From: Escherichia coli
GTDB lineage: Bacteria > Pseudomonadota > Gammaproteobacteria > Enterobacterales > Enterobacteriaceae
Assembly (NCBI RefSeq): GCF_050920415.1
Contig: NZ_CP169309.1
Reading direction: 5' to 3' (one strand)
Length of the DNA stretch: 64,000 bases
This document shows positions 57,106 to 64,000 of the stretch, in pieces. The translations under genes were made by a program, and so were the position numbers. Each line of letters begins with the position of its first letter. Positions within the stretch are counted from its first letter, which is position 1. The notes beneath the pieces were generated by a model. The model saw only the letters and a list, made by a program, of their open reading frames with translations. It had not been told where the DNA came from and ran no database searches.

Positions 57106-57150
57106 TGGTGGAGCTGGCGGGAGTTGAACCCGCGTCCGAAATTCCTACAT
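57106..57150 (-). other. 45-bp copy of the ssrA (tmRNA) 3' end: prophage attachment-site core
   Basis: Reverse complement of ...atgtaggaatttcggacgcgggttcaactcccgccagctccacca; upstream tmRNA body absent. Confidence 0.8.
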
Positions 57151-57282
57151 ACCATTTTTACTATAACAAAAACATGAACTTATGTTTAAAATCAGTATGT
57201 TAGTATTATTTTGTGTTTGTCTGTTTTACGCATTTTTAATGCTCTGCCGCCAAAATGCCGCCACTGGTTTTGCTTGGGAGAC

Positions 57283-58803
57283 TTATTCAGGCTTTAATTT
57301 ATTGATAATAGAATCTACCATTTTAATGCCTGCCTCATTGACTATGACTGAATTGACTACTCTATCAAAATAGTCTTCTATATGGTGGGAAAATAGGAAA
57401 GCAGCACTTGATGGTTTTTTGTTCTTTTCAACTGCAGATTGCAAGACTTCATGAGGCGGAATTTTAAACCTTTTGCATGATGCAATGAGATATTCAAACT
57501 CTTCAAATGATAGACAAAAAATATTCTCTGTAGGGATATGATAGTTATGTTTAAACTTGTCATATATCTTATTCATCTCATCTTTAGCATAAGTATTAGC
57601 TAGGATACTACCATTGCCTAAGAAAAGGTTTTTATATGTAATGCAAATGATATATGAGTTAGCCCTGAATGGAGCTATTATTCGCTCATTAGAGTATATT
57701 TCTCGATTAACTTCGTGAGATTGTTCGATTGCTTTTAATACCGATTTCTTTATTTTTCCTGCAATATCCTCAGGGCGTAATGTTACCATGCCTTTTTGGT
57801 GTATCTCAACGCCTTTAGCATCAATGAAAATATTTGCCTCAGTATGTGGAATGAAATAATCAACTACTTTATTATCTTTAGGTAGTCGTTCTTTAAGGTA
57901 TTTTTCGTTATGAAAATCAATTTCGCTTTCTTTTAGTATTAATTCCAGTGCATTTTCAAATACATTTCCAAAGCTATCCATGAACTTCTCGGCATCAGTT
58001 CTTCTTAAAAGATCATATATGAACGTCTGTATGCTTGTTGAAGTCAGTTGTGTGTGTATCTGAAAATACTCTGAACCTTTTTTTATTAATGGTTTTTCAA
58101 GGAAAGGTGATGATGAGTAGTATTCAAGCAAAGGTTTATCATAGGTTTTTGATTTGCAAAATGTAGATAGTTCATTGTAATTTATTGATATTGCATCAAG
58201 AAATTTCTCAATGGTATTTCTAGGAATGATGTCAAATAATATAGTAAATGTATCTACATTCATTTTTCTCACGGGATGCTCTTCTGTTATGTGAGTTATT
58301 AATATGTAAGATAGCTTAAGAAAGTCTTCGATAGATACATTCGTGATAGTAAAAAAACTTGTCTTTATTTTATGGTTTTTTTCAAGTTCTGAAAATAGAA
58401 AGACTTGTCTGCTAATTGTGTTTAGAGCGTCAATTTTCTGGTAGATTCCTTGTTGGTATAGATTATTTCTAATGAAGAAATGCATGCCATTCTTCCTCTC
58501 AAGACCGATAGGAATAATGTTCAAGGTTTCATAAGTTTTTTGGAAGAGTTTTATTGCTTGATTTTTATCGAGGATTTTGAATTTTTTATTCTTGCCAGTT
58601 ACTGACGCAGACCACTTTAGACATAAATTAACAATCCAAGGCATGTGTCGTAACATGTGGATATTATCTTCAAATTTTTGTAAGTTATATTGCATACAGA
58701 ATTCGATAAATAAATCAGGGGAATAACCTTGGATTTCTGAACGAATAGCATCCATTCTTAACTTTGCAACCGCATCAGATTGAATATCTAATTTTTGAAT
58801 CAC
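57283..58803 (-). CDS. hypothetical AT-rich cargo protein located between prophage int and att
   Basis: 506 aa; no motif recognised with confidence; 12 bp downstream of int in the same orientation. Confidence 0.5.
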   Translation of the reverse strand: MIQKLDIQSDAVAKLRMDAIRSEIQGYSPDLFIEFCMQYNLQKFEDNIHMLRHMPWIVNLCLKWSASVTGKNKKFKILDKNQAIKLFQKTYETLNIIPIGLERKNGMHFFIRNNLYQQGIYQKIDALNTISRQVFLFSELEKNHKIKTSFFTITNVSIEDFLKLSYILITHITEEHPVRKMNVDTFTILFDIIPRNTIEKFLDAISINYNELSTFCKSKTYDKPLLEYYSSSPFLEKPLIKKGSEYFQIHTQLTSTSIQTFIYDLLRRTDAEKFMDSFGNVFENALELILKESEIDFHNEKYLKERLPKDNKVVDYFIPHTEANIFIDAKGVEIHQKGMVTLRPEDIAGKIKKSVLKAIEQSHEVNREIYSNERIIAPFRANSYIICITYKNLFLGNGSILANTYAKDEMNKIYDKFKHNYHIPTENIFCLSFEEFEYLIASCKRFKIPPHEVLQSAVEKNKKPSSAAFLFSHHIEDYFDRVVNSVIVNEAGIKMVDSIINKLKPE

Positions 58804-58815
58804 AATAGGTCTCCA

Positions 58816-61947: not shown

Positions 61948-62187
61948 TTGATTATGCGTAATATTGAAACCCTCACGACTAAAACCGGACCGGATGATGC
62001 AGGGCTTAATATTTTACTGACAGAGGCTCGTCTGGAAGAACGCCGGGCAAGGGCTGAAGCAATGGCAGCTCGCCTTGATAGCCTGGCGTGTCATATCACA
62101 TCCCGCCAGCTAAACCACGTCGAAGCAGCAGAACTACTGCGTGTAACTGCTGAAGCAATCCAGAACGAAGCGCAGGAGATCCACTAA
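61948..62187 (+). CDS. phage early hypothetical protein
   Basis: 79 aa ORF with SD. Confidence 0.4.
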   Translation: MIMRNIETLTTKTGPDDAGLNILLTEARLEERRARAEAMAARLDSLACHITSRQLNHVEAAELLRVTAEAIQNEAQEIH

Positions 62188-62414
62188 TGGCTGATGCAAT
62201 GGATCTTGTACAGCAGCGCGTTGAAGAAGAACGCCAGCGCCATATCCGTGCTGCCCGTGCCAAAACGCCGGGCGTGTCCCGCGTGCTTTGCATTGAGTGT
62301 GAAGCGCCAATTCCGCCAGCACGCCGCCGCGCCATTCCAGGTGTGCAGCTTTGCATTACCTGTCAGGAAATCGCAGAACTGAAAGGCAAACATTACAACG
62401 GAGGTGCTGTATGA
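62187..62414 (+). CDS. DksA/TraR-family C4 zinc-finger protein
   Basis: 75 aa; CIECEAPIPPARRRAIPGVQLCITC. Confidence 0.6.
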   Translation: MADAMDLVQQRVEEERQRHIRAARAKTPGVSRVLCIECEAPIPPARRRAIPGVQLCITCQEIAELKGKHYNGGAV

Positions 62415-63268
62415 GCACCATCCTGAAATGGGCGGGAAATAAAACCGCCATTATGTCCGAACTGAAAAAACACCTTCCTGCTGGCCCGCGACTGGTTGAA
62501 CCTTTCGCGGGTTCCTGTGCTGTGATGATGGAGACGGATTACCCCAGCTATCTGGTTGCGGATATTAATCCTGATTTAATCAACCTCTATAAAAAGGTTG
62601 CCGCTGATTGTGAATCGTTTATATCTCGCGCCAGAGTTTTATTTGAGATCGCAAACAGGGAGGTGGCTTATTACAACATAAGGCAGGAGTTTAATTACTC
62701 CACTGAAATTACTGATTTCATGAAAGCGGTATATTTCCTGTATCTCAATCGTCACGGTTACCGTGGTTTATGTCGCTATAACAAGAGCGGGCATTTCAAC
62801 ATTCCCTACGGTAATTATAAAAATCCGTATTTCCCTGAAAAAGAAATTCGCGCATTTGCAGAAAAAGCCCAGCGGGCAACGTTTATCTGCGCCAGCTTTG
62901 ATGAAACGCTGGCGATGTTGAAGGCGGGGGATGTGGTGTATTGCGATCCGCCGTATGACGGCACGTTTTCCGGTTATCACACTGACGGCTTCACTGAAGA
63001 TGACCAGTATCACCTGGCATCCGTTCTTGAACATCGGTCATCAGAAGGACATCCGGTCATTGTTTCTAACAGTGACACATCCCTGATCCGTTCGCTGTAT
63101 CGCAATTTTACTCACCACTACATCAAGGCAAAACGCAACATCGGTGTGGCAGCTGGCGAGGGTAAATCAGCAACAGAAATCATTGCTGTTTCCGGGCCGC
63201 GCTGCTGGGTGGGATTTGATTATTCGCGTGGCGTGGACAGTTCTGCCGTGTACGGAGTACGTGCATGA
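62411..63268 (+). CDS. phage DNA adenine methyltransferase (Dam family)
   Basis: Start [11 protein letters not shown]; motifs EPFAGS and DPPY. Confidence 0.8.
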
Positions 63269-64000
63269 GTCATGCCGATATGAACAACTGCTGCGGCTTT
63301 AACGAGGCTACCGCAGCATTCTCATGGAACAGCCCGAAAAAGGCCATTAACCCTTATCTGGACCCGGCGGAAGTTGCGCCGGTTTCTGCGCTTTCAAACC
63401 TGATCACTCTGTACGCTGCCGATAACGAGCAGGAACAACTGCGCCGTGAGGCACTGAGTGATCAGGTCTGGGAGCGTTATTTCTTTAATGAATCCCGTGA
63501 TCCTGTCCAGCGCGAAATGGAGCAGGATAAGCTAATTAGCCGGGCAAAGCTGGCGCATGAGCAGCAGCGTTTTAATCCAGACATGGTCATTCTGGCGGAT
63601 GTCAACGCCCAGCCTTCCCATATCAGCAAGCCGCTGATGCAACGTATTAAATACTTCAGCAACCTGGGCAGGCCAAAGGCTTATTCCCGCTATTTGCGTG
63701 AGACGATTAAGCCATGCTTGGAACGACTGGAGCATGTACGCGACAGCCAGCTATCTGCATCTTTTCGTTTTATGGCAAGCCATGAAGGGCTGGACGGTCT
63801 GCTGATCCTGCCTGAAATGAGTCAGGATCAGGTGAAACGCCTGTCCACCCTTGTCGCTGCGCATATGAGCATGTGTCTTGATGCCGCTTGTGGTGATTTG
63901 TACGCCTCCGATGATGTTAAGCCGGAAGAAATCCGCAAGACATGGGAAAAGGTGGCAGCAGAAACCCTGCGACTGGATGTCATACCGCCTGCGTTTGAGC
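63265..64000 (+). CDS. P2 gpA-like replication initiation protein (3' end outside window)
   Basis: ORF open to window end; position after dam. Confidence 0.5.

Follow-up and report, generated by a model that had tools for sequence, protein, structure and literature searches.

We report that positions 57105-64000 of the 64,000-nt stretch of Escherichia coli DNA analysed here (the window) very probably represent the integrase-proximal end of a temperate P2-family phage (Peduoviridae) of the Fels-2/SopEPhi/Cartapus lineage, which is integrated at ssrA and carries the cargo gene gapS1. The window ends 6.9 kb into the element, inside gene A, and the predicted features are listed in Table 1.

Table 1. 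Features at the ypjA-proximal border and in the visible part of the prophage
Feature	Position	Strand	Remarks
Chromosomal flank, ypjA stop to att core	56946-57104		directly follows ssrA in island-free E. coli
att core, 46-bp copy of the ssrA 3' end	57105-57150	-	T-arm, acceptor 3' strand, CCA + 1 nt
Int-side attP arm, AT-rich	57151-57266		ends in two direct TGCCGCCA repeats
gapS1, 506 aa, GapS1-family (predicted anti-phage) protein	57283-58803	-	NCBIfam NF047931; cargo in int-att slot
int, 337-aa tyrosine integrase, Fels-2 type (ssrA-specific)	58816-59829	-	Pfam PF24624 + PF00589; phrog_1 integrase
cI, 210-aa 186/Fels-2-type immunity repressor	59831-60463	-	phrog_4 transcriptional repressor
Lysis-lysogeny switch region	60464-60582		two 22-nt direct repeats, promoter-like site
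apl/cox-like excisionase and repressor, 82 aa	60583-60831	+	phrog_6912, phrog_575 (Cox-like excisionase)
cII-like lysogeny establishment regulator, 169 aa	60864-61373	+	phrog_101
fil-like cell division inhibitor, 66 aa	61381-61581	+	phrog_816; Fil family in relatives
DUF5347 protein, 113 aa	61545-61886	+	phrog_602; in Fels-2, not in 186
DUF2732 protein, 186 orf79 homologue	61954-62187	+	phrog_128
TraR/DksA-like C4 zinc-finger protein	62187-62414	+	TIGR02419, 65.8 bits vs cutoff 59.7
dam, DNA adenine methyltransferase, 285 aa, intact	62411-63268	+	TIGR00571, 320.9 bits vs cutoff 114.85
A, P2 gpA-type replication endonuclease, first 245 codons	63265-64000	+	open to window end

An exact copy of the tmRNA 3' end had been noted in the initial annotation at 57106-57150 on the minus strand, and this was borne out: the 44-nt sequence TGTAGGAATTTCGGACGCGGGTTCAACTCCCGCCAGCTCCACCA has a single match in the window (57106-57149, minus strand, no mismatches; none expected from 100 shuffles). 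Alignment to a full-length ssrA from a near-identical genome extends the identity to 57105-57150, i.e. 46 bp, which is the 45 bp first noted plus one base past CCA. As had also been proposed, the sequence 5' of the copy (57151 onward) is not tmRNA; Rfam aligns the acceptor/T-arm end alone (30.5 bits vs the gathering threshold of 47), and no tmRNA gene was found across the window using ARAGORN and Rfam. The copy accounts for 46 of the 47 bp of the annotated Fels-2 attP core, and together with the adjoining 115 bp it is contiguous with the attP of Cartapus and the annotated attP of Fels-2. This identifies the fragment as the prophage's own duplicated att core, as first suggested, and not as a gene or as debris of another island; it marks the int-proximal junction, distal to the ssrA gene.

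Insertion at the ssrA 3' end is in agreement with the three-way logic of the att sites, the empty site and the prophages in relatives. The junction in the window consists of chromosomal flank, core and int-side arm, the junction at ssrA in E. coli ETEC4089 of ogr-side arm, core and ssrA body, and the Cartapus attP of ogr-side arm, core and int-side arm. Of 5,426 complete E. coli genomes, 1,389 have the empty site, with ssrA joined directly to the flank and followed by ypjA. In the prophage records and in the Fels-2 annotation, the edge of the element coincides exactly with the core. The int-side arm is conserved across five phages or prophages with different cargo as well as in the Cartapus attP. 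Its two TGCCGCCA repeats (57245-57252 and 57256-57263, 11-bp spacing), which in Fels-2 directly follow the int stop, are putative Int arm-type sites.

The integrase, the CI repressor and the divergent operon with apl-like, cII, dam and A genes were all found as originally described, and the gene order, int and cI followed by the divergent apl, cII, fil, DUF5347, DUF2732, traR-like, dam and A genes, is colinear with Fels-2. Int has the catalytic set R209, H282, R285, H308 and Y317 and is 93.8% identical to Fels-2 Int (over 337 aa) and 95.3% to Cartapus Int, compared with 53.8% to 186 Int. Early-region proteins are 59-94% identical to their Fels-2 counterparts: CI 59% (186, 32%; relatives annotate it as 'phage repressor protein CI'), the Apl-like protein 70% (186, 30%), the CII-like protein 94% (186, 72%) and Dam 73% (no 186 counterpart). 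For the 245 visible codons of A the identity is 83% to the Fels-2 gpA-like protein and 97-99.6% to the 'replication endonuclease' of relatives; these first 245 residues gave no match in 186 at an E value of 1e-3 or better.

Thus, of the earlier designation as a P2/186-like prophage, the P2-family part stands and the 186-like part does not; the element is Fels-2/Elveevirus-like, with Int identities of 94% vs 54% and a dam gene that 186 does not have. It shares with 186 (Eganvirus) the type of CI/Apl/CII switch, the order int-cI and apl-cII-fil-orf79-orf80...A, a small gene (orf69) in the slot between attP and int, and an annotated arm-type consensus, YAYCGCCAYTY, that resembles TGCCGCCA. However, 186 integrates at ileY rather than ssrA and lacks the DUF5347 gene as well as dam, and an assignment to 186 was rejected on the basis of Int identity, att site (ssrA, not ileY/ileX) and gene content. 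Fels-2 and SopEPhi of Salmonella and Cartapus of Escherichia (Felsduovirus, Elveevirus) likewise integrate at the 3' end of ssrA, which for Fels-2 and SopEPhi is stated in a passage of PMC3448106 citing Pelludat 2003. With these phages the element has in common the attP core, the arm-type repeats, the integrase and the gene order, and the complete relatives have the same ogr-side arm as well. In contrast, the identity to the proteins of these phages is just 53-59% for CI and 70% for Apl, suggestive of a different immunity type.

The switch region carries 22-nt direct repeats at 60476-60497 and 60506-60527, each with the imperfect palindrome ATCAAATATTGRAT, and by comparison with the annotated pR/CI sites of 186 these are putative CI operators. 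A promoter-like TTGACG-17-TAGTAT (60476-60504, plus strand) overlaps the repeats; the consensus scan for promoters and terminators performed no better than on shuffled sequences (13 promoter-like sites found vs 11.2 expected) and identified no pL-like promoter. For this reason, co-transcription of cI, int and gapS1 is suggested by strand, spacing and the 186 model.

The remainder of the prophage was approached through its relatives. E. coli TOK-001 is 100% identical over 57106-64000, and its prophage is uninterrupted up to an intact ssrA annotated at the ogr-side prophage end. ETEC4089 has 99.7% identity and the same ypjA junction, and its second copy of the core (L001, 41234-41277) lies within ssrA (41234-41596). 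In both strains the P2-type prophage is about 34-35 kb and ends at intact ssrA next to smpB, and the relatives that were inspected have late genes of the P2 type (portal, terminase, capsid, sheath and tube, ogr). Extrapolating from these relatives, an intact ssrA probably lies beyond position 64000 also in the present strain. No genome in the collection matched both flank and prophage at 100%, so the completeness of the prophage in this strain is likewise an extrapolation.

It could instead be that the early/immunity end alone survives as a defective remnant, and that the DNA beyond 64000 has been deleted, rearranged or replaced by another ssrA island. The window does end inside A, the neighbourhood in this strain is decaying (ypjA; see below), the ssrA locus often holds other or tandem elements (the TOK-001 flank; CP4-57 in K-12), and ETEC4089 has an IS1 in the late region and a frameshift in dam, which demonstrates that decay does occur in close copies. 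On the other hand, the ten fully visible genes are all intact and the A frame is open to the window end, the identical TOK-001 copy is complete, and a 7.1-kb query is matched over at least 94% of its length in each of the 14 E. coli genomes that carry this gapS1 allele. We therefore consider a remnant unlikely.

The integrase had been described as adjacent to the att copy, and the gene between the two had been missed. The gap between int and the core is 1.67 kb and is accounted for by the 1521-nt gapS1, which starts with GTG 12 nt after the int stop and has a GGAG 8 nt upstream of the start. Its GC content is 29-33%, compared with 45-52% in the phage backbone. The product scores 428.5 bits against NF047931.1 (cutoff 320), with residues 20-474 covering the full 455-position profile, and the identical protein WP_000615103.1 is annotated as GapS1 in RefSeq. 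It has a candidate PD-(D/E)xK-type motif (D315, D328-A-K330), in which D315 and K330 are 15 residues apart. The same spacing separates D313 and K328, which were shown to be essential in Vibrio GAPS1 (bioRxiv 10.1101/2023.03.28.534373), and it is this spacing, together with the match to the NCBIfam profile, that suggests a tentative correspondence. According to published data, GAPS1 is a single-protein defence that arrests growth on sensing the capsid protein of an incoming phage, and four E. coli GAPS1 homologues protect against coliphages in published experiments; WP_000615103 was not found among the supplements of the GAPS1 preprint that were searched. Like GAPS1 of Vibrio parahaemolyticus VPaI-6 and the E. 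coli homologues, the system consists of one gene carried by a mobile element, and its product exceeds the cutoff of the family model; it differs in residing in the int-att slot of a P2-family prophage, as opposed to a GMT island. An anti-phage activity is predicted for this allele.

As cargo, gapS1 occupies a swappable slot that is bounded by the int stop on one side and the arm-type sites on the other. In sister phages this slot has no gene or encodes a dCTP deaminase, an HNH protein, a RES protein or GapS1; Fels-2 has no gene here and Cartapus a RES-domain gene. An int-att defence hotspot of P2-like phages has been published (bioRxiv 10.64898/2026.02.27.708500). The gapS1 allele is present in 14 of 5,426 complete E. 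coli genomes, with a full-length ORF that is 99.8-100% conserved in all 14, and the exact protein is found on at least 1,000 contigs. The gene also occurs inside phage and prophage records from Klebsiella. Moreover, the module gapS1-int-cI...A is 99% identical over 9.4 kb and is joined to late genes that are 92-97% identical (Klebsiella, E. coli).

It appears improbable that the 506-aa gene belongs to the host or is a decayed passenger without any phage role, rather than expressed defence cargo. Searches with the protein did give no match in PADLOC 2.0 (PADLOC-DB 2.0), no nuclease match in Pfam (the sole TPD match, E = 0.1, is meaningless) and nothing significant or usable among PDB sequences, its PHROGs family is of unknown function, and no promoter of its own stands out. 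However, PADLOC 2.0 dates from 2023 and predates the description of GAPS1, and the missing match is thus no evidence against a defence role. The location inside the att boundaries and in Klebsiella phages, the conserved full-length ORF, the record of the exact protein on so many contigs, the score above the curated cutoff, the retained candidate nuclease motif and the protection by E. coli homologues all argue for defence cargo.

On the chromosomal side, the flank has nearly the same sequence and the same position as the K-12 flank beside psaA, the 14-bp pseudo-ssrA that lies at the far end of CP4-57. Within the flank, a hairpin followed by a T-run can be read on both strands (about 56955-56980). 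The earlier comparison of the ypjA-side border with the far end of CP4-57 agrees with this: 160 bp separate psaA from the ypjA stop, a distance equal to that seen here. In this strain ypjA carries an IS2, and 1 nt is deleted at 56162. The prophage thus resembles CP4-57 in locus, in the distance of the outer junction from ypjA and in leaving an ssrA 3' fragment, and differs from it in that CP4-57 has a P4-type IntA next to ssrA and no P2 genes. A CP4-57-type island was rejected, there being no IntA or CP4-57 cargo genes between ypjA and the window end. In view of the equal distance, the core could also be taken for a scar of such a different ssrA island (CP4-57-like, with P4-type IntA), with the P2-like phage merely a neighbour at another site or in tandem, but this is highly improbable given that the K-12 scar is short and degenerate with deletions and the present repeat is exact over 46 bp, that the core runs unbroken into the int-side arm of a free-phage attP, that no P4-type integrase or CP4-57 gene separates it from ypjA, and that the element boundary is set exactly at the core in the records cited above.

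For the preferred reading, an ssrA-integrated Fels-2-like phage, the following route is the most probable. Int-mediated site-specific recombination took place between the phage attP and the 3' end of host ssrA. Since the attP itself carries 46-47 bp copied from the ssrA 3' end, ssrA would be completed after integration by the phage copy at the far prophage end, beyond 64000. The displaced original 3' end would have remained at 57105-57150, beside the former post-ssrA sequence and ypjA. Past ogr, at the end of the late genes, and a 483-nt ORF, the far junction would be TGGTGGAGC...CTACAT inside the 363-nt ssrA, followed by smpB. In the lysogen cI, int and gapS1 may form one leftward unit, and CI would repress the rightward operon (apl-like, cII, fil, DUF5347, DUF2732, traR-like, dam and A) at the repeats in 60476-60527. 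The Apl/Cox-like protein would direct excision, for which the prophage may still be competent. It is also conceivable, if rather doubtful, that gapS1 is read through from the lysogenic cI-int transcript, such that a phage which has to assemble its own capsid later on would constitutively produce a nuclease that senses capsids and induces dormancy. In that case, either the Fels-2-like capsid has to escape GapS1 or the phage has to turn GapS1 off upon induction, and the near-identical gapS1-int-cI...A module would represent a recently spreading, cross-genus 'immunity plus defence' cassette.

All elements have been described before, and the prophage is of an ordinary, catalogued P2-family (Fels-2-like) type; the locus is a useful annotated example rather than a discovery, with little significance past correct annotation. 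For the annotation, the prophage boundary is fixed at 57105 and ssrA in this strain would be completed by phage DNA. Moreover, gapS1 would be a lysogen-borne defence gene, the allele of which is rare in E. coli. Finally, the locus neatly illustrates the int-att cargo slot in P2-family phages, the backbone of which is otherwise conserved.

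The 44-nt 3' end of tmRNA (TGTAGGAATTTCGGACGCGGGTTCAACTCCCGCCAGCTCCACCA) has a single exact copy in the window, where chance predicts none, and when it is aligned to the full-length ssrA from a nearly identical genome the identity reaches one base further per side, giving a core repeat of 46 bp. From 57151 on (upstream of the core in the tmRNA sense) the DNA is AT-rich and shows no relation to tmRNA, the Rfam match at the core covers the T-arm and acceptor end only (30.5 bits; gathering score 47), and neither ARAGORN nor Rfam predicted a tmRNA gene across the whole 64 kb. The initial annotation was thus correct in reporting a copy of the tmRNA 3' end without the rest of the gene. 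The core corresponds to 46 of the 47 bp of the attP annotated in the Fels-2 GenBank record.

Aligning six junctions revealed three arrangements: in the window, as at four further prophage junctions from E. coli, the ypjA-side flank, the core and the int-side arm are joined; the ETEC4089 junction at ssrA combines the ogr-side arm, the core and the ssrA body; and Cartapus, as a free phage, has an attP made up of the ogr-side arm, the core and the int-side arm. This is the pattern expected of attP x attB recombination. We reconstructed an empty site by fusing ssrA straight to the flank of the window (57105 to 56800); among 5,426 complete E. coli genomes, 1,389 contain it as one unbroken match. 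The remark that ypjA in K-12 lies at the far side of CP4-57 also holds: there the same flank adjoins "psaA", a scar of degenerate pseudo-ssrA sequence that marks the distal end of CP4-57, and psaA lies 160 bp from the ypjA stop, the distance seen for the core in the window.

The ypjA gene of the window strain is broken twice, by an IS2 (tnpA split over two frames) that interrupts it after approximately 88 nt, with the intact ypjA of ETEC4089 as reference, and by a 1-nt deletion at 56162 that divides the frame; either the gene is a pseudogene or the sequence contains an error. Between ileY and ypjA, adjoining ypjCB, a 64-bp segment shares 94% identity with the ogr-side arm of a Fels-2-like attP (ETEC4089 sequence L001, 41172-41235), hairpin included; the similarity ends just inside the core, and the segment appears to be left over from the end of an older P2-family prophage.

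Features of the window, with the evidence for each
Feature	Position	Strand	Evidence
serV-argV-type array, tRNA-Arg(acg)	12717-13714	+	Rfam
Antisense tRNA-Arg(tcg) calls	12833-12904; 13109-13180	-	ARAGORN
MicA sRNA	16625-16696	-	Rfam, 83.9 bits
naRNA4/CssrE	25347-25424	-	Rfam, 63.5 bits
ileY	47721-47796
ypjCB	48548-50002
ogr-side arm-like segment	50121-50184		Similarity to L001
IS2	51029-52357		Comparison with ETEC4089
IS2 TnpB	51440-52345		NF006918, 727.6 bits
ypjA	52330-56945 (frames 52330-56229, 56235-56945)
Core repeat	57105-57150		Alignment with ssrA
tmRNA 3'-end copy	57106-57149	-	Exact match
attP arm, intergenic	57151-57266		Six-junction alignment
TGCCGCCA repeats	57245-57252; 57256-57263		Sequence
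506-aa ORF (gapS1)	57283-58803	-	ORF call
Tyrosine integrase, 337 aa	58816-59829	-	Pfam Int_N + Phage_integrase; R209, H282, R285, H308, Y317
CI-type repressor, 210 aa	59831-60463	-	Family match
Switch region, 119 bp	60464-60582		Sequence and repeats
22-nt direct repeats	60476-60497; 60506-60527		Sequence
19-nt imperfect inverted repeat	60496-60514 with 60530-60548		Sequence
Cox/Apl-like excisionase	60583-60831	+	Family match
CII-like regulator	60864-61373	+	Family match
Fil	61381-61581	+	Family match
DUF5347	61545-61886	+	Family match
DUF2732	61954-62187	+	Family match
TraR/DksA-like zinc finger	62187-62414	+	Profile match
Dam methylase	62411-63268	+	TIGR00571, 321 bits
gpA-type replication endonuclease, first 245 codons, open to window end	63265-64000	+	Comparison with relatives

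The prophage had been described as P2/186-like; the P2-family assignment stands, with Fels-2 in place of 186 as the closer type. Phage 186 shares the general layout but integrates at ileY and lacks dam and DUF5347, both present here, whereas Fels-2 has the same gene order and is closer in Int (93.8% identity vs 53.8% for 186), CI (59% vs 32%), CII (94% vs 72%) and Dam (73%; no counterpart in 186). For these reasons we class the element as a Fels-2/Elveevirus-like member of the P2 family. That Fels-2 and SopEPhi integrate into ssrA is established in published work (PMC3448106, citing Pelludat et al. 2003). The best matches in the phage collection were twelve Klebsiella prophage records that lack annotation (Kp4845-2 among them; 99.8% identical, starting exactly at window 57151), followed by Escherichia phage Cartapus, the Salmonella phages RE2010, SEN8 and SopEPhi, and Fels-2.

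The remainder of the prophage lies past the window end, and we inspected it in two relatives. ETEC4089 is 99.7% identical to 56900-64000, ypjA junction included, and beyond its core a P2-type prophage of approximately 35 kb extends to an intact ssrA, which smpB follows; this prophage is damaged by an IS1 in the late region and by a dam frameshift (an extra A; window 62465, L001 11678-12536), whereas dam is intact in the window. TOK-001 is 100% identical to 57106-64000 and has a complete prophage of approximately 34 kb, uninterrupted through to ssrA and smpB. From these relatives we infer that ssrA lies past 64000 in the window strain. The outer flank of TOK-001 differs from that of the window (where the window has ypjA, the att fragment is followed by another gene with an integrase domain, the second, and by ISKpn26 and glaH/lhgO), which suggests either the remnant of a tandem element or a deletion that removed the ypjA-ileY region. 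The 9.4-kb module from gapS1-int-cI through A-dinI is 99.1% identical between the K. pneumoniae prophage record Kp4845-2 (OK490395.1) and ETEC4089, while their late genes are only 92-97% identical, indicating a mosaic early module common to both genera.

The integrase, reported as adjacent to the att copy, is in fact separated from the core by 1.67 kb holding an overlooked 506-aa ORF. Its product matched NCBIfam NF047931 "GapS1 family protein" (428.5 bits, cutoff 320) and is identical to WP_000615103.1, annotated as GapS1 in RefSeq; the exact sequence is present on at least 1,000 contigs as "MULTISPECIES: GapS1 family protein [Enterobacteriaceae]". Searches of PADLOC 2.0, Pfam and PDB sequences gave no match. 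GAPS1, described from Vibrio GMT islands, is a single-protein PD-(D/E)xK defence triggered by a phage capsid protein with dormancy as outcome; its residues D313 and K328 are essential, validation covered four homologues from E. coli, and K. pneumoniae holds approximately 78% of homologues (bioRxiv 10.1101/2023.03.28.534373). The window protein has D315...D328-A-K330, the same D-to-K spacing as Vibrio D313/K328. The gene has a GC content of 29-33% (phage backbone 45-52%) and starts at a GTG 12 nt past the int stop with GGAG 8 nt upstream; its placement right after int suggests that it may be expressed with cI-int in the lysogen. The allele occurs in only 14 of 5,426 complete E. coli genomes, all copies being at least 99.8% identical, and each of the 14 matches at least 94% of a 7.1-kb query spanning the prophage end.

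The interval from the arm-type sites to the int stop, in backbones otherwise 94-95% identical, is empty in ET665 and holds an anti-phage dCTP deaminase in JX21CE8, an HNH protein in ET734, a RES-domain protein in Cartapus and GapS1 in the window; phage 186 has the small orf69. In the junction alignment homology breaks off just past the second TGCCGCCA, and the interval is a cargo hotspot. The two TGCCGCCA repeats at the end of the int-side arm are 11 bp apart, as are TGTCGCCA and TGCCGCCA in the ogr-side arm (Cartapus, ETEC4089), which also has one inverted copy; Fels-2 has the same TGCCGCCA-type repeats directly after the int stop. These are probably Int arm-type sites, since comparable sites, with the consensus YAYCGCCAYTY, are annotated in the 186 record, where three flank the core on one side and two on the other.

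In the switch region each 22-nt repeat holds an imperfect palindrome (ATCAAATATTGRAT), and the repeats overlap a promoter-like site (TTGACG-N17-TAGTAT), making them candidate operators for CI at pR. Taken as a whole, the promoter scan performed no better than chance. Just 3' of these putative operators are repeated ATAAAAC motifs (60530-60548), which may be Apl-type sites, after the 186 switch.

Elsewhere in the window, the antisense tRNA-Arg(tcg) calls overlap the tRNA-Arg(acg) genes and are probably mirror artefacts, because Rfam gives the plus-strand genes only; MicA and naRNA4/CssrE, both over the Rfam gathering threshold, fit a standard E. coli chromosomal context.

Taken together, these results confirm the initial observation and support the reading given to it, which they refine in three respects: the phage is closer to Fels-2 than to 186, gapS1 lies between int and att, and the presence of ssrA past 64000 is predicted from relatives. 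The prophage end is an ordinary one: P2-family phages that target ssrA, their att core, GapS1 and the hotspot between int and att are all already described and RefSeq-annotated.
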